A stretch of 63,860 bases of DNA, the filler included, from Vezdaea acicularis (taxonomy: Eukaryota), in NCBI GenBank assembly GCA_026025075.1. It is 3 parts of 3 records of this genome, joined end to end, with 100 filler letters (N's around TTAATTAATTAA, not from the genome) between each part and the next. Parts side by side here need not be neighbours in the genome. Positions count along the whole stretch, not along the records: positions 29,635 to 58,508 come from JAPEUI010000167.1; 2 more parts are not named here. One strand, given 5' to 3'. Under the pieces are notes generated by a model that ran no database searches, had not been told where the DNA came from, and saw only the letters and a program-made list of their open reading frames with translations. The translations under genes and the position numbers were made by a program. The stretch's first letter is position 1; each line of letters starts with the position of its first letter. This document shows, in pieces, positions 29,535 through 58,608 of this stretch.

Positions 29535-29634
29535 NNNNNNNNNNNNNNNNNNNNNNNNNNNNNNNNNNNNNNNNNNNNTTAATTAATTAANNNNNNNNNN
29601 NNNNNNNNNNNNNNNNNNNNNNNNNNNNNNNNNN
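29535..29634. other. Artificial contig spacer (N44-TTAATTAATTAA-N44)
   Basis: All-frame stop linker flanked by N runs; an identical structure occurs at 58509-58608. Confidence 0.97.
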
Positions 29635-45100: not shown

Positions 45101-47324
45101 GCTCCGTCTCATGGGCGGGAACTGTGACTCGGTAAGGTAGGTGATGCAAAGGCCGCGATGGCGTCAAGGAAAAAACCGTTTATCGATCGAGTTGCCACGC
45201 TGTTTCGCCCGATCTCTTTTTTTCTTTCCTGCCGATCTCTTTGCTGTTCCTGGCTGTTCTGGCCCCTGGCGGGCAAACCGTCCCTTGCGGGGTTTTTTTG
45301 TTTTTTTCTTTTGGTTGACTTCGTACCATTTGGTTGGCGGCTGAGTTTCGCCGTGGAGAACCGATGGGGAAGGCTCGTTTTCGGGGCCTTCTGGATCGAG
45401 TGCCGGTTGAGCCTTCCCTTACTCCTCCTTTCTTCTTGGAGATTGAGACTGGCCCAAGAGCACCGCCATTACGCGGCCACCGTCAGAAAGGAGAGACTTC
45501 GTAATTACATTACGATAAAGAGCTGCAAAAGTTAGATGGTATTTCGTAATGATAAGGTCCCAGACTGAGTATTCTCTTCGCGTCCGATATAAATCCGAAA
45601 AACAAATTATTTCGGAGACATTTCCTACTTTCTCCGTTCTGCTCCCGGAAAATGTCGCACGTGGCTTTTGACAACGGCCACGTGTGCGTAAGACAGGGGG
45701 TTTTCCTCTCAGAGCAGTTTGTATATCTCGACGATTGGTGCATGACTCCATGGAACCCCTTGGGATGCTGATAAGGCCGGGACTACGTCGAAGTATGAGA
45801 AAAGGCAATTACGTGAAATTTTAAGCTGCCCTGCGGTGTATCCAAAGGGATAAGGGGTATTCATCCACCTGCCTCTACGGCGTGAAACTAGAGTAGTGAT
45901 AGTGCTTAATATGAGAATATGAATAGGACCCCTATCGTTCACATCCCCTTTTGTAGCAGGGAGCACGCCCTCCTCAACCCTTACTGCCGTTAGGGTTGTG
46001 GTACGGGATACTACTATAGACCTGCGAGTAGGGAGCACCCAAACAGATTGTTAGTTTATGAATTAAAAAATCACCAACCGTCGCATGTACCGCAGCATAC
46101 GCATAAGCCCCGCGCCCCTTTCCACTTCTCCAGGAGGTGGTGATAACCAGACGGATAGACGGGCCCACCCCTTTTCCCCCTTCTAGGCGGGACTTGTTTG
46201 TACCGTGCCATTAAGGAGTGCCTGTATTATTGGGGTTCGTGGCAAGATGATAGTTACGCTGCGGTGTGGTTTTGTAAGGATTTGTTCTTAAAGGCAGCTC
46301 CGTGGACCTAGATCCTAGCTCTGGGACTGAACAGCCCGATCTAACCTGTCCAACCTGTCCAGATCACGCTCTCTTTTTCCCTTATTGCCGAGACAAGTCG
46401 TTGCAGCCGCTCTCCTCATCACCTCGCCACCTCATCAGGGCCAACTGATCAGGCAACTAACTATCCCGTTACTCCTAGTAGAGTTCCCTCTCCTGAACCA
46501 ACTCCTACCCCTCTCCTCTGCAATCCACCGCTCTCCACGCCACTCCGACCCCTCTCAAATATCCCCTCCCTCTCCCCCTCCCCTTTTAAAAGGGCTAGAT
46601 TTGTCTCTAAACGCGCACAGTGTTTGGCTTCTCTGGTAGATGGGGTGGATGGACAAGACGAGCTTGTACCTCTTCCTTCTTTCGCCTCTAAGGGGTGTGT
46701 ACGCGTTATAGCATTGCCAGCGCTCTGTTAGTAAGGGATGTCCTACACCAGCCCCTAATCCCTCTCCGATTCGATTAGAGTATGTTCCTTATCCCACCAA
46801 GAACCCAACAGGGAATGGTGCGGCTTTATCGCATGTGGAGGGTAGTAAGTACCAGATCATGCGTTTACTTGGATAGAACACGACGAGATAGGAAAACAGC
46901 GAGTCCTCTACTATGACGCATACGCTAAACAGATTAAGAAGAGGATTGAAGGATCAGTCCTTGATGCGTAGAAGGTTCAAGACCAGCGTGAGGGCTTCGT
47001 GTCAGAGTGCAGTGCGATAGTGCGCTGCCATTCACACAAAAGGAATCTAGTAAAGGAATTCTGTTGAATTTCCTATCCATAATCACATTGCAGATATTCA
47101 TTGCATTTATTCTACCGTTGTCCAGATGGGCGTCTTCGAACGTAGTAGATCAGGAAAGTTTGACTAAAGGCAAGCAGACCAGTTTTTTCGTATCCGTTTC
47201 CTGCATTACATCGCATCTCTCAAGAGAAGGGAAGAAAAGACTGAGTCGTCAAAGCATTCCCCCCGTTTTGAAATAAGTCACTCGCACCACCTTTGACGTC
47301 TCGACAACCTCGGAGTCGAGATTT

Positions 47325-49316
47325 CTAGGCGTTGAGGTAGAGGCTTGCATCGATACCCTCGGCCGGAGCTTCACTGCGGGATTGTCAGCTTTCTTTGTGG
47401 ATAGACACGTAGAATTTTGACTTACGGCAGCGCAACTTCGAATCTCTTCTCAATCTCCTGCAGGATCGCTTGATCAGCCTCAGAGCTGACGAATGAAACA
47501 CTCAGCCCCTTGGTACCGAAACGACCGGCCCGGCCGACACGATGTAGGTACTGATCCGCAGACTCAGGCATGTCATAATTGATGGCAAGATTGATACGCT
47601 CGATATCGATGCCTCGCCCGAACACGTCAGTGGCCACGCATATCCGCTTATTGAATTCTTTGAACTCCTTGTATCGCTTGATACTGTACAGCCTATTAGA
47701 GGAAGGTTATTCTGATGTGGAGGACATGTAATCTTACCGCTCCTCCTGAGAAACGCCCGAGTGCACCGCAATAGACGGGAAGTTACATTCGCGGAGTAGC
47801 TTGTCGAGTTCGGTGGCACGCACAGTGCTCTTCACGAAAATGATGACCTGGTTAAACTCAAGAGTGTCGAGAAGATCATTGAGCTTGCGATTCTTTTCGT
47901 TCTCGCTAAGTTTGATGCAATACTGCTTGAGACCATGTAGGGTGAGCTTTGTATCATCATCAACATAGATCTCAAGGGGGTTCCGCATAAACTTCTTGCA
48001 AATAGGACGAATCTCCTGTGAGAGTGTGGCGCTATACATCATAACCTGCTTCTGCGTTGGGGTTGCTCGGAAGATCTCTTGCACATCACGACGCATATCT
48101 GTGTTGATTCATATCAGAGGCCGCTCATTGTCATGTTTCTATATGATCCTCACTCACCGATCTGGTCGAGCATCTTGTCGCATTCATCAAGAACAAAGAT
48201 CTTTACAGAGCCAAGTCGGATATGTTTGTCTCGCACGAGGGCATTCATACGTCCCGGTGTGGCGACGATAATATTCGGGTGCGTCTCCTTGTTCTTCAAG
48301 ACGGCGATATCTTGATCGATCTTGACACCGCCATAGAACACAGCAGTCTTGATGTCGGGCATATATTTCGAAAAGCGGTTATATTCATTCTTGATCTGGT
48401 ATGCCAACTCACGGGTATGGCACATCACAAGGATAGAGGTCTCCCCCGCAATAGGTTCAGCTTGTTGAAGAGTCGTGAGAACGAATACGGCTGTTTTTCC
48501 CATACCAGATCTAGCCTGGCAGAGGACGTCGGTACCGAGGATAGCTTGTGGGATGCAGGCTTGCTGTACTGTAATGTGAATCGAGCCGCAAGTTAGACTT
48601 CGTTCGACCTCTAAAATGTTTGAAATGACGCATTTAATCCACCGAAACGTCCGTCCATCTTGCATCATGGCCTTAAGCAGAGGTTTCACAAGCTTTACAG
48701 CCCCCCAAGCTACACACACCGATAATGGTGACGGTAATTGCAGGGAGGAGGGAAGCTAGCCGTACTAAAACGCAGTTTTTCTCATGTAATGGTGGGCAGG
48801 CGGAGCCAGAAAGTCATTCTCTTCTGCCTTGGACTACCTTGTAACCCATACTACGTTCCCTGGGACAGTAGCATTTTGCCGCCTCTTCCTCATATATGAA
48901 GGTGATGAGTTCTTTCTGTCATAGCAGAAATCTGGCCAGAGATGACTTTCCGGTCCCGCCCGATAGAGACAAAAATTGCTGAACCATCCTTCGACTGCAG
49001 AGATGGACGGACGTTTGGAGAAGAATGGAGAGACTGGAGGGAGCTTTGGGGGGAAGTTTTATGACTGACCATCCGACGGATGTTCGAAACCGCAGTCGGT
49101 AATCGCACGTAGGAGCTCAGGCTTGAGCAGGAAATCTCGGAATCCAGCTAAATTCATGCCCGAATAACTACCCTTTTGCGCAGCGCCACCGGATGCTGTC
49201 AGATCGCCGTCTTTCTTGGCAGAAGCAGCGCCATTTGCAGCTCCACTCGGGCCGGCCGAATCTGTGATCTGGAGCTCCTCGTCGTCATAATCAATGAGGT
49301 CTTCTTCGTGAGACAT
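47325..49316 (-). CDS. SUB2: DECD-box RNA helicase Sub2/UAP56 (5 exons)
   Basis: [44 protein letters not shown] and HRVGRAGR. The first intron (48569-49069) is 501 nt. Confidence 0.96.
48645..49016 (-). ncRNA. Candidate structured intronic RNA element in SUB2 intron 1
   Basis: Perfect 16-bp inverted repeat 48645-48660/49001-49016 enclosing further nested helices, e.g. 48799-48817 with 48942-48960. Confidence 0.55.
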
Positions 49317-49764
49317 CCTGATAGACTTTGGGATCGATGAGGATGATAGAAGTAGGAGCGAAGGAATACGTTTGGCGAGAGAAGGCTGGTTGTTGTTGAA
49401 CTTGTACGCCTAAAATGGGCGTAGGTCGCTTCTTCTACAATGGAGGAGGGCCAGGAAATTAACAAGGCCGAATCCGGTAGGTTAGGGCAGCTCAGAGAGT
49501 TGAGAAAGATTCTTTGATAGATATCACCGCTTCTGTTATTGTTGATGGCGTGGGAACAGAGTGAATGTTGGCGGTGGAGGAATGAAAGGCGAGAGATTTC
49601 TCTCGACTGCGGCTCGGACGGTATACGCTAACCCAAAAGGGCAAAGCGTCAAAACTCCAGTGTCAAACCATCCACCATCCATCATCCTTTACAGTCGTTG
49701 GCCTCTGGCTCATAAATCGGAGCAAAATTGGATTTTCCATTCATTCCTGGGGTCCTAGAGGAAG

Positions 49765-50325
49765 ATGGGGAAATCTCGAGGCCATGCTTCCGTCCCGAAT
49801 AGACATGCATATTCTCGAGTTTCTTTTTTATACCAAGCTGCTTCTCTTCTTGCCTCAAAGGATCGTGTACCTCCGAAGCCTGTGGCCCGCAAGGCTTCTG
49901 GAGCAGAATTCGACCACAGTGCACATTCTGAGCGACAGGCGTCAGTAGCAGCACCAGTAGCAGCACCTGCGCCAGCATCACAGAATCCGGTTCACTCGCA
50001 ACAAGAGATCCTCTCATCTTCTAACGCTGTACCCAGAAGACTAGTCGCCCACATGTTGGACGTCGCTCGCAAATCTCAAATTCGGCTGGCTCCGTCGATA
50101 AAGCAATCAGTTTGTATGCGCTGTAACGTGCTACTTGTACCAGGGACCAGCTCCAGCTCAAGAATGGAAAACAACAGTAAAGGAAGCAAGAAGCCTTGGG
50201 CTGATATCCTCGTCATCGAATGTACCTCCTGCGGAGCGGAAAAGCGTTTCCCAGTTGGCGCCAAACGTCAACGCAGGCGAGGGCCCCCACGGGCTTGCCG
50301 GGATGGAGCCGGTGGTGCTGTCTAA
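49765..50325 (+). CDS. RPR2: RNase P subunit Rpr2/RPP21-family protein
   Basis: YSRVSFLYQAA, VARKSQIRL and zinc-binding CMRC...CTSC followed by KRFP. Divergent from SUB2. Confidence 0.85.
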   Translation: MGKSRGHASVPNRHAYSRVSFLYQAASLLASKDRVPPKPVARKASGAEFDHSAHSERQASVAAPVAAPAPASQNPVHSQQEILSSSNAVPRRLVAHMLDVARKSQIRLAPSIKQSVCMRCNVLLVPGTSSSSRMENNSKGSKKPWADILVIECTSCGAEKRFPVGAKRQRRRGPPRACRDGAGGAV

Positions 50326-58508: not shown

Positions 58509-58608
58509 NNNNNNNNNNNNNNNNNNNNNNNNNNNNNNNNNNNNNNNNNNNNTTAATTAATTAANNNNNNNNNNNNNNNNNNNNNNNNNNNNNNNNNNNN
58601 NNNNNNNN
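58509..58608. other. Artificial contig spacer (N44-TTAATTAATTAA-N44)
   Basis: Same linker as at 29535. Confidence 0.97.

Follow-up and report, generated by a model that had tools for sequence, protein, structure and literature searches.

Sub2/UAP56 is essential, and in yeast either a shortage or an excess of it does harm; to our knowledge, no control of its dosage has been described in fungi. Among the closest described systems is the autoregulatory intron of Saccharomyces cerevisiae YRA1, for which Preker and Guthrie reportedly found in 2006 that negative feedback depends on inefficient splicing, and we know of no conserved long-range helix that is required there. Barta and Iggo are said to have shown in 1995 that a conserved intron of DBP2 mediates autoregulation of that helicase; its cis element is not, as far as we know, a defined invariant helix. 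Both YRA1 and DBP2 are given as autoregulated via splicing inhibition in the accessible part of PMC12311795.

A second kind of system is the “zipper stem”, which has been described as enhancing splicing (Rangan et al. 2025, PMC12350175; Granas et al. 2025, PMC12311795; both as excerpted) and which occurs in long introns of S. cerevisiae, including those of RPS17B, RPL7A/B, RPL28 and others (PMC12350175; PMC12311795). In RPL7B, the stem is a splicing enhancer and its disruption gives autoregulation (PMC12350175; PMC12311795). In the excerpt of PMC12350175, the total linker length of a zipper stem is defined as 42–85 nt on the strength of a modelled S. cerevisiae A complex, and the stems are poorly conserved in sequence, at 20–30%. 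A third kind is represented by the decay-promoting introns of Schizosaccharomyces pombe, which recruit Mmi1 (PMC4695336, as excerpted).

The gene considered here lies on the minus strand of a 63,860-nt stretch of Vezdaea acicularis DNA (the window, by which the whole stretch analysed is meant), and protein matches of its exon 2 identify it as the SUB2/UAP56 (DDX39) orthologue. Exon 2 matched yeast Sub2 chains at an E value of 5.8e-59 and human DDX39B at about 4e-55, against only about 1e-21 for the next helicases, DbpA and DeaD; its Pfam DEAD match stood at 8.6e-30. A preliminary description of this DNA had put the first intron at about ten times normal length, which is right for this gene because introns 2–4 are of 59, 54 and 52 nt, against 501 nt for intron 1 (Table 1). 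The 5′ splice sites of introns 2–4 read GTGAGT, GTAAGA and GTAAGT, beside which that of intron 1 is non-consensus.

Table 1. Features of the SUB2 gene and of its first intron, with positions counted along the window.
Feature	Position	Strand	Remarks
Exon 1	49070..49316	-	ATG at 49316; 82 codons + 1 base; ends ...GFEHPSD, phase 1
Intron 1	48569..49069	-	501 nt, phase 1
5′ splice site GUCAGU	49064..49069	-	pyrimidine at +3
In-frame UAA	49059..49061	-	fourth codon into retained intron 1 (G|GU CAG UCA UAA)
P1 5′ arm	48996..49016	-	AAACGUCCGUCCAUCU (49016..49001), one unpaired base, UGCA; conserved core GUCCGUCCAUC
P2 5′ arm	48935..48962	-	GGGCGGGACCGGAAAGUCAUCUCUGGCC; includes the arm 48942-48960 of the preliminary description
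P2 3′ arm	48797..48829	-	AGGCAGAAGAGAAUGACUUUCUGGCUCCGCCUG; includes the arm 48799-48817 of the preliminary description
P1 3′ arm	48645..48664	-	UGCA, then AGAUGGACGGACGUUU; conserved core GAUGGACGGAC
Branch-point motif UCUAAC	48592..48597	-	branch A at 48593, 25 nt upstream of the 3′ splice site
3′ splice site AG (ACAG)	48569..48570	-	end of intron 1
Exon 2	48158..48568	-	opens with VQQACIPQ; DEAD-box motifs
Rest of gene after exon 2	47325..48157	-	exon 5 runs to a stop near 47325 (end of exon 5 read by eye)
Intron 2	48099-48157	-	59 nt; exon 3 next
Intron 3	47684-47737	-	54 nt; exon 4 next
Intron 4	47374-47425	-	52 nt; then exon 5

The outer helix of the intron, here called P1, had been described as a perfect 16-bp pairing of 48645-48660 with 49001-49016, and all 16 of the 16 positions are indeed complementary, with 340 nt between the arms. 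The TGCA/TGCA extension is present as well, after one unpaired base, and brings the helix to 21 nt at 95% overall. Among 1000 dinucleotide shuffles of the window intron, the best perfect inverted repeat reached a length of 13, against the 16 observed. Counted along the intron, P1 occupies 54-69 and 410-425, and the branch A stands at 477; closure of the helix leaves 129 nt (53 nt on the 5′ side and 76 nt on the 3′ side), in keeping with the earlier estimate of about 130 nt. Taken as a whole, the intron has an unexceptional folding energy against shuffles, with z values of -1.48 for the sense and -1.37 for the antisense strand; the signal in the window intron resides in specific helices and their conservation. 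In X5 and X7, two relatives of about 94% identity, the 3′ arm of P1 is unaltered although the flanks differ; for the 94%-identical relative, the judgement of pairing covers only the left arm of P1 and a single position of P2.

More distant relatives were reached with exon 1 as the query, which returned 80 related loci at 60–71% identity. The 69 metagenomic fungal SUB2 loci that contain both exons are the basis of the intron-site counts, and 57 distinct introns, that of the window included, fall into 40 clusters. The intron occurs at the identical phase-1 site in 68 of the 69 both-exon loci, with a median length of 474 nt, while a cDNA-like contig (L033) joins EHPSE|VQQ precisely at that site. 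In two further relatives, seen in public contigs, the two exon ends are separated by 479 and 481 unlike letters. Intron 2 of the related genes, by comparison, measures about 50–72 nt with a median of 55 (61 loci, including the intronless L033). The preliminary description had raised the prospect that the intron might be short or unstructured in relatives, and neither turned out to be so: it spans 365–576 nt, and the outer helix keeps its place, in 68 of the 69 loci. Thus intron 1 is long for its gene as well as positionally conserved, at 501 nt beside 52–59 nt in the window and 365–576 nt beside about 55 nt in the relatives, which is what an autoregulatory intron of the YRA1, DBP2 and RPL7B type would show. 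Sequencing runs containing the stretch comprised seven of DNA type, with no RNA run among the matches listed.

These loci bear directly on an explanation at the level of DNA, by which the helix would be what remains of a MITE or other foldback transposon, or would be some different palindrome, with no role in RNA. Perfect 16-bp terminal inverted repeats around 340 bp are what such an element would leave, but no second copy of either arm occurs in the 63.9-kb window, and the sequences flanking the arm ends (...CCACCG and GGAGAA...) show no target-site duplication. Across related loci of about 380 kb in total, the core was found 106 times in complete SUB2 introns 1 and eight times in truncated copies of the intron, and elsewhere only three times, each with one mismatch. 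The earlier question of whether the arms belong to a multicopy MITE is therefore answered by three stray one-mismatch matches in some 380 kb and none further in the window. As 68 of the 69 loci have the element at the orthologous site, it is not an insertion polymorphism either, and the covariation and G.U bias set out below indicate selection on RNA. A transposon relic is thus a highly improbable account of the helix.

Conservation of P1 is concentrated in its core. Both 11-nt P1 cores are exact in 26 of the 57 introns and carry no more than one mismatch each in 38, and the k-mers most widely shared among the introns are the two P1 arms, which rank above the splice-site and branch-point words. 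When the window intron was compared with its relatives by blastn, matches were confined to intron positions 1-77 (the 5′ end and 5′ arm) and 404-434 (the 3′ arm). On the 57-row alignment, P1 is 84.1% paired, with both sides changed in 12 of 17 pairs. Scored on that alignment jointly with the inner helix P2, 75.4% of cells are paired, against 36–45% with the partner slid; cells with double changes number 144, against 77.7 ± 8.2 expected from shuffles, and none of five measures was reached by the shuffles (0/500). RNAalifold, applied to the full MAFFT alignment of 57 introns, returned P1 alone, with nine pairs of which six carry compensatory changes. Compensatory changes reach the core itself in L058 and L037 (CCAGCC/GGCUGG), and in L018 and L035 the P1 helix is relocated or variant. 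Wobbles in the core favor sense-strand G.U over A.C by 29 to 13 among the 40 cluster representatives and by 44 to 22 among all 57 introns. The strand bias of these wobbles is only about 2:1.

The helix is also stable, with a median duplex dG of -30.8 kcal/mol. Among the 54 anchored introns, the mean pair probability of the P1 core is at least 0.9 in 42 and below 0.5 in 7, and all 11 core pairs appear in the minimum free energy structure of 38, against none in that of 8. In 54 relatives, 37–70 nt (median 50) separate the 5′ splice site from the core, and 42–74 nt (median 52) separate the core from the branch A, with one mis-anchored outlier at 123. The nested long-range RNA structure proposed in the preliminary description is thus real and under selection, as seen in the 68 of 69 loci, the compensatory flank changes and the G.U-biased wobbles of the core; because the flanks covary, it is the pairing of P1 itself that is selected. 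Considering that this helix is kept nearly letter for letter in dozens of distant relatives, the evidence suggests an undescribed control element of an essential gene.

The degree of invariance in P1 exceeds what pairing needs, and this counts in favor of a different reading, in which the P1 duplex or its single strands would be bound by a sequence-specific factor, comparable with Mmi1, that would direct the pre-mRNA into nuclear decay or export, the approximation of splice sites being secondary. Decay-promoting introns do exist, one of them in a DEAD-box helicase gene (PMC4695336, as excerpted). Selection on the pairing itself, evident from the covariation of the flanks, speaks against this reading, as does the finding of no candidate protein or motif match for P1, and we regard it as quite improbable.

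The inner 19-nt helix (48799-48817/48942-48960) was found as it had been described, with 16 Watson–Crick pairs, two G.U pairs and one mismatch on the transcribed strand (84%), and it is part of a longer helix, P2, that extends to 26 bp across the arms given in Table 1. The P2 duplex of the window has an energy of -40.9 kcal/mol and a z of -6.4, and in relative X5 a G>A change at 48805 converts the sole sense-strand mismatch of P2 to U-A. The smaller nested pairs, GCAGTTTTT-CTC/GAG-AAAAATTGC and TTCTGC/GCAGAA, likewise exist in the sequence, and their pairing is weak. Since RNAalifold gave P1 alone for the 57 introns and found no structure in a 22-row alignment of the P2 domain, P2 was scored with a structure written by hand, both jointly with P1 on the 57-row alignment and on 22 introns picked for strong P2. 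In that subset, P2 is 79.8% paired, against 31–50% with the partner slid, and both sides have changed in 10 of 18 pairs (for example, GC 13/AU 7 and CG 8/UA 6). P2 therefore covaries in a subset of introns; with the search windows used, it is demonstrable in fewer than half of them, a duplex z of -2 or lower being reached in 25 of 56 testable introns.

Small RNAs are encoded in many fungal introns, and a further reading is that the roughly 370-nt domain closed by P1 would be freed from the lariat and persist as a trans-acting non-coding RNA, in which P1 would be a terminal stem that gives protection and P2, together with the inner hairpins, would form the functional body. The fairly constant size of the P2 sub-domain enclosed by P1 (159–203 nt in 22 introns), with its conserved helices, would suit such an RNA. 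Yet the interior has little primary-sequence conservation besides the helix arms, no conserved box C/D or H/ACA pattern was seen by eye, and no Rfam family matched the window intron at E ≤ 10 or any of 20 related loci at gathering score. An intron-derived stable RNA is accordingly improbable.

The splice signals of intron 1 are themselves conserved. The 5′ splice sites of the 57 introns read GTCAGT in 29, GTTAGT in 21, GTTAGC in 4 and GTATGC in 3, so that +3 is occupied by C or U in 54 of the 57; the consensus is GURNGU, and this together with introns 2–4 is the basis for calling a pyrimidine at +3 suboptimal. The branch-point motif is TCTAAC in 36, TCTGAC in 15 and ACTGAC in 4, with none in 2, and the 3′ splice site is ACAG in 49 of 57. 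An in-frame stop lies within four codons of the start of the intron in 47 of the 57, compared with 2 and 6 of 57 in the two control frames. To some extent, any intron can be expected to have an early in-frame stop. Judged from these sequences, intron 1 appears to combine a suboptimal splice signal with an unproductive unspliced RNA, as do autoregulatory introns of the YRA1, DBP2 and RPL7B type.

An appreciable, though not the favored, possibility is that P1 is a constitutive splicing aid and nothing is regulated. The intron would then be long for some other reason, such as an RNA domain or transcriptional or chromatin signals, and P1 would merely keep it spliceable where the spliceosome is adapted to introns of 50–60 nt. 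The other introns of the gene, at 52–59 nt, fit this, and yeast zipper stems are widespread and mostly not known as regulatory (PMC12350175, as excerpted). Constitutive aid leaves unexplained, however, the near-invariant sequence of the P1 core, the similar length of a 330-nt, little-conserved insert in 40 lineages, and the conservation of both the suboptimal +3 and the early stop.

On balance, we lean towards P1 as a zipper-type structural splicing element within a regulated, retention-prone SUB2 intron. Intron 1 would be an ancient, deliberately long (365–576 nt) intron of filamentous-ascomycete-type genes, whose transcript is predicted to fold into a conserved two-tier long-range structure made up of P1 and P2. 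P1, a helix of 13–20 bp with the near-invariant core GUCCGUCCAUC/GAUGGACGGAC, would clamp off an insert of 227–397 nt, and P2, with arms resembling GGGCGGCC..GGAAGUCUC and GAGACUUCC..GGCCGCCC, would stack inside it. By clamping off the insert, P1 would thus work like a yeast zipper stem, that is, as a structural splicing enhancer. As one yeast zipper-stem mutant decreased rather than increased retention (PMC12350175, as excerpted), the direction of the P1 effect cannot be assumed. Because the non-consensus 5′ splice site and the early stop are conserved, we infer that splicing of intron 1 is tuned rather than maximal. Unspliced SUB2 RNA would be unproductive, yielding a truncated product or undergoing NMD, and the open or closed state of P1 would therefore set the amount of Sub2. 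The most economical controller would be the TREX/Sub2 machinery itself, acting by negative feedback on the analogy of YRA1 and DBP2. Simple bridging does not explain the near-invariant core of P1, and that invariance points to some further constraint, such as a binding site for a protein, an alternative base pairing or a tertiary contact.

A bolder and rather doubtful version of this would make the helix a switch operated by the helicase. Sub2, alone or in TREX, would sense its own abundance by opening or by-passing P1 of its own pre-mRNA, whereupon the weak 5′ splice site would fail and the retained intron would end translation after four codons. The 5′ splice site might even be masked by the freed 3′ arm of P1, whose GAC-GAC matches the GUC-N-GUC shared by that splice site and the 5′ arm that resembles it. 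Pairing between the 3′ arm and the 5′ splice site is weak, with a median energy of -7.9 kcal/mol and a rank that at the median falls within the top 5.8% of windows, and it reaches the top 1% in 7 of 54 introns. If the switch were real, it would control the dosage of an essential helicase of splicing and export, would be conserved throughout the filamentous ascomycetes, and would be the first case of DEAD-box unwinding of a defined intronic helix as a regulatory step.

Two other pairings were considered and set aside. An alternative in which the 3′ arm of P1 pairs with the last bases of exon 1 (AACAUCCGUC and AACGUCCGUC in the window) is not conserved among relatives because the third base of a Pro codon varies. 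An outermost helix between the 5′ linker and the linker before the branch point is unsupported, with a median z of -0.04.

The helix of SUB2 intron 1 matches no Rfam family and no description in the literature searched, in so far as the searched sources were accessible. The main text of two surveys of structured RNAs in fungi (PMC5640933, PMC8216456), as excerpted, makes no mention of SUB2, UAP56, helicase or DEAD, while their supplements could list intron hosts. A long intron with a near-invariant helix in at least 40 diverged lineages, in genes whose other introns are of about 55 nt, offers an easily mutated candidate for control of Sub2 dosage. Moreover, with the near-constant core of P1 as the query, any fungal genome can be searched for the element in a simple way.

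How, then, does the locus compare with the systems described? In the Mmi1-dependent introns, as far as the excerpted source goes, retained introns set the mRNA level, including that of a helicase gene, which is the likeness to the retention proposed for SUB2; those introns depend on short single-stranded motifs, whereas the SUB2 feature is a long-range duplex. YRA1 resembles SUB2 in being a gene for a TREX/mRNA-export factor with an atypically long intron after a long first exon and with suboptimal splicing signals. It differs in that SUB2 encodes a helicase rather than an adaptor, and feedback at SUB2 is so far a conjecture by analogy. DBP2 shares with SUB2 a DEAD-box helicase product and an unusually long, positionally conserved intron, whereas the helicase family and the intron position are not the same.

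The closest likeness is to the zipper stems, which, in the text available, pair a segment after the 5′ splice site with one before the branch point, as P1 does, and shorten the effective distance in introns of 400–500 nt. The SUB2 linkers total about 53 + 51 = ~104 nt in the window, with a median of ~100 nt, and so exceed the 85-nt limit, although that limit was set for S. cerevisiae and may not transfer. The host also differs: it is a splicing and export helicase rather than a ribosomal protein gene, in genomes whose introns are otherwise of 50–60 nt. In contrast to the yeast stems as described in the excerpted text, the core of P1 is almost invariant over 40 diverged lineages, and a second conserved helix, P2, is nested within P1. 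Intron 1 of SUB2 thus takes the zipper-stem idea past budding yeast with real covariation and deep sequence conservation, evidence of a kind that is lacking for the yeast zipper stems because their sequences diverge too fast (PMC12350175, as excerpted).

Protein matches define a five-exon SUB2/UAP56 gene on the minus strand, whose exon 2 resembles yeast Sub2 (E 5.8e-59) and human DDX39B (about E 4e-55) and carries a Pfam DEAD match (8.6e-30). Its first intron (intron 1) spans 501 nt versus 59, 54 and 52 nt for introns 2, 3 and 4, and the preliminary description of it as about ten times normal length is correct for this gene. Divergently oriented next to SUB2 is a gene for an Rpr2/Rpp21-family subunit of RNase P/MRP (Pfam PF04032, E 4.9e-23); some 440 bp lie between its start and the start codon of SUB2, so the two genes probably have a common promoter region. 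Rfam snoR28 gives a weak, box C/D snoRNA-like match (23.6 bits, E 0.48; gathering score 45) on the SUB2 strand, about 215 nt past the stop codon of the gene, a place that fits a 3′-flanking snoRNA; it is most likely a chance match. N runs in the window number four of 44 N (176 N in total), at 29535-29634 and 58509-58608.

Coordinates of the SUB2 gene, its intron 1 elements and nearby features
Feature	Position	Strand	Remarks
SUB2/UAP56 gene, five exons	47325-49316	-	protein matches
Exon 1	49316..49070	-	phase 1 end after ...GFEHPSD
Intron 1	49069..48569	-	501 nt; GUCAGU start, UCUAAC 25 nt before end, ACAG end
Extended 5′ splice site	49059-49069	-	GUYAGUCAUAA
5′ splice site segment	49060-49069	-	GUCAGUCAU
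P1 (outer helix), 5′ arm	49001-49016	-	GUCCGUCCAU
P1, 3′ arm	48645-48660	-
P2 (nested helix), duplex	48935-48962 / 48797-48829	-	26 bp
19-nt inner helix	48942-48960 / 48799-48817	-	part of P2
Box C/D-like GTGATGA ... CTGA	48899-48985	+	antisense to intron 1
Rpr2/Rpp21-family gene	49759-50325	+	divergent
snoR28-like match	47044-47111	-

Two nested helices characterize intron 1. An inverted-repeat search found the arms of the outer helix, P1, complementary at 16 of 16 positions, precisely the perfect 16-bp helix first claimed, and dinucleotide shuffling of the intron, repeated 1000 times, gave no perfect inverted repeat longer than 13. P1 occurs in the MFE fold and in the centroid fold alike, and its closure leaves 53 + 76 = 129 nt, in agreement with the earlier figure of about 130 nt. 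Inside it lies P2 (E -40.9 kcal/mol, z -6.4), which includes the 19-nt inner helix already proposed; that helix is complementary at 16 of 19 positions, with two U.G wobbles and one C.A mismatch on the sense strand. As a whole, the intron folds with unremarkable free energy (z -1.48 sense, -1.37 antisense), and the case therefore stands on the specific helices. Box C/D-like motifs about 80 nt apart, without an Rfam match, also occur antisense to the intron.

Relatives came from a metagenome scan queried with the exon-1 protein, and the best 80 of 284 confirmed fungal SUB2 loci (L001-L080; 60-71% identity) were used; their short introns and CTRAC branch sites lead us to take them for filamentous ascomycetes. 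Eleven of the 80 stop short of exon 2, and 68 of the 69 usable loci carry an intron at the identical phase-1 site, 365-576 nt long (median 474), while intron 2 is about 50-72 nt long in these genes (median 55 over 61 loci, the intronless L033 among them). L033, the 69th locus, is a 2258-nt contig whose unbroken open frame of 541 codons holds the complete SUB2 coding sequence and no introns; it probably represents an assembled transcript or else a retro-copy. Its uninterrupted frame joins EHPSE and VQQ at the predicted site and so confirms the exon 1-exon 2 junction. The loci gave 57 distinct intron 1 sequences, window included, in 40 clusters at 85% aligned identity. Short or unstructured introns in relatives, an outcome considered at the outset, are thus not what was found: the intron is long in nearly all loci, and P1 is present in most of the 57. 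Among public contigs of relatives (coded runs X5 and X6), one 12.8-kb contig of X5, about 94% identical, extends from end to end of the region and differs by 71 substitutions and 7 indels. Among the differences listed, positions 48645-48664 are spared with both flanks altered, and G>A at 48805 converts the sole sense-strand mismatch of the inner helix to U-A. Both exon 2 and exon 1 are also matched by two more distant contigs, X5 record 9 and X6 record 12, in which 481 and 479 unlike letters separate the exons.

By sequence comparison, P1 is the intron's most conserved feature. When the window intron was compared with the others by blastn, only positions 1-77 (5′ end and 5′ arm) and 404-434 (3′ arm) aligned, and the k-mers common to most introns were first both P1 arms, then the 5′ splice site as well as the branch region UCUAACAUC. 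An unbiased search for the longest ungapped helix in each intron returned the P1 pair in most of the 57. Both 11-nt cores are exact in 26/57 introns and have at most one mismatch in 38/57. Three introns lack the P1 anchor: L018 and L035 have a 12-14 bp helix of changed sequence at its place, and in L027 the ungapped helix search found no equivalent. In L080, the longest helix joins positions 1-12 (5′ splice site) to 438-449, overlapping the start of the P1 3′-arm core.

The covariation proposed as a check in the preliminary description is present in the flanks of the P1 core (uuugc/gcaaa, ccgc/gcgg, cca/ugg, ucc/gga, cagaac/guucug), and L058 and L037 have compensated changes within the core itself. 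In the 57-intron alignment, made with MAFFT and not structure-aware, P1 is 84.1% paired with both sides changed in 12/17 pairs, and P1 alone was recovered by RNAalifold. Taken jointly, P1 and P2 have 75.4% of their cells paired versus 36-45% with partners slid, and double-change cells number 144 versus 77.7 +/- 8.2 in shuffles, none of 500 shuffles attaining any measure. Non-Watson-Crick cells of the core in cluster representatives comprise 29 sense-strand G.U versus 13 A.C, a strand bias that gives a modest but consistent sign of selection on RNA rather than DNA. The predicted P1 duplex has a median dG of -30.8 kcal/mol; of the 54 anchored introns, 42 reach a mean core pair probability of 0.9 or more, seven stay below 0.5, and eight have an MFE structure that contains no P1 core pair.

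P2, judged from the alignments, is conserved in a subset of introns. Homologues of the window helix are GGGCGGCC..GGAAGUCUC / GAGACUUCC..GGCCGCCC in one set of relatives and CGAUCCUGGAAUGUCUC / GAGACUUCCAGGAUCG in a second. With fixed alignment windows, its duplex reaches z <= -2 in 25/56 introns (z <= -3 in 20) and is not demonstrable in the remainder. Within 22 introns picked for strong P2, a selection that biases the figures, and with a hand-drawn structure, 79.8% of cells are paired versus 31-50% with partners slid. Both sides changed in 10/18 pairs of this set (e.g., GC 13/AU 7, CG 8/UA 6), and the domain is fairly constant at 159-203 nt. By eye, a local hairpin CUGUA...UGCAG follows the P2 5′ arm in the window and relatives.

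An origin of the arms in a multicopy MITE, the alternative first raised against a dedicated structure, is very unlikely: the 63.9-kb window holds no other copy of the P1 arms, the element occupies the orthologous site in 68/69 loci, and copies of the core outside SUB2 intron 1 are scarce. Across about 380 kb of related loci, the core falls 106 times in complete introns 1, eight times in truncated ones and three times elsewhere, each of these strays mismatched. Separately, GATGGACGGAC with one mismatch recurs at window positions 2698, 29934, 32831 and 42223 (+), where roughly 0.5 copies are expected; none has a complementary arm nearby, and they are possibly a frequent coding word (Asp-Gly-Arg).

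The splice signals are also distinctive. The 5′ splice site reads GUCAGU in 29 introns, GUUAGU in 21, GUUAGC in four and GUAUGC in three, such that +3 is a pyrimidine in 54/57, which differs from introns 2-4 of the window gene; the branch site is close to consensus (UCUAAC 36, UCUGAC 15 of 57). Conservation of the extended 5′ splice site across L001-L080 continues far past the usual six bases. A retained intron 1 would meet an in-frame stop within four codons in 47/57 introns, versus 2/57 and 6/57 in the other frames; 25 introns have it at codon 2, as the UAG of GUUAG, and 21 at codon 4, as the UAA of UCA/UCU UAA. The stop is made either by UAG in GUUAG or by UAA after GUCAGUCA, two routes that look like convergent maintenance. 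The 5′ splice site also resembles the P1 5′ arm, a similarity matched by a median 1.6% of other windows of the same intron, and the P1 3′ arm can therefore pair weakly with it, at a median E of -7.9 kcal/mol and a median rank in the top 5.8%. This modelled pairing is a lead, not a finding. The 5′ arm might serve as a decoy or as a cryptic donor that is kept sequestered.

No Rfam family matched the window intron at E <= 10 or 20 of the related loci at gathering score, the main text of two fungal structured-RNA surveys (PMC5640933, PMC8216456) has no mention of SUB2, UAP56 or helicase, and no paper describing such an element was among the full-text literature matches listed. What appears new, on sequence grounds, is that the gene of a splicing/export helicase holds an intronic structure that is long-range, nested and deeply conserved; its kind, zipper-like, is known. 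With P1 closed, linkers of about 50 nt (5′ splice site to helix) and about 52 nt (helix to branch A) remain, so that an intron of about 470 nt would act as one of roughly 100-130 nt. This distance-shortening logic is that of yeast zipper stems (Rangan et al. 2025, PMC12350175) and of the enhancer stem in RPL7B, which Rpl7 disrupts, leading to autoregulation (Granas et al. 2025, PMC12311795). P1 may work like a zipper stem, to which it is likened rather than assigned because it follows the position rules but exceeds the 85-nt linker limit (PMC12350175). It goes beyond a plain zipper in its near-invariant core, compared with 20-30% conservation in yeast zipper stems (PMC12350175), and in the conserved weak +3 position and immediate stop of its intron. 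Taken together, these three features suggest an intron whose splicing is kept only marginally efficient and whose unspliced form would be harmless. Regulation might then be exerted by Sub2 or TREX, with unwinding of P1 as the regulatory step. Such a design would be akin to that of YRA1 and DBP2, whose autoregulation works through splicing inhibition (cited in PMC12311795).
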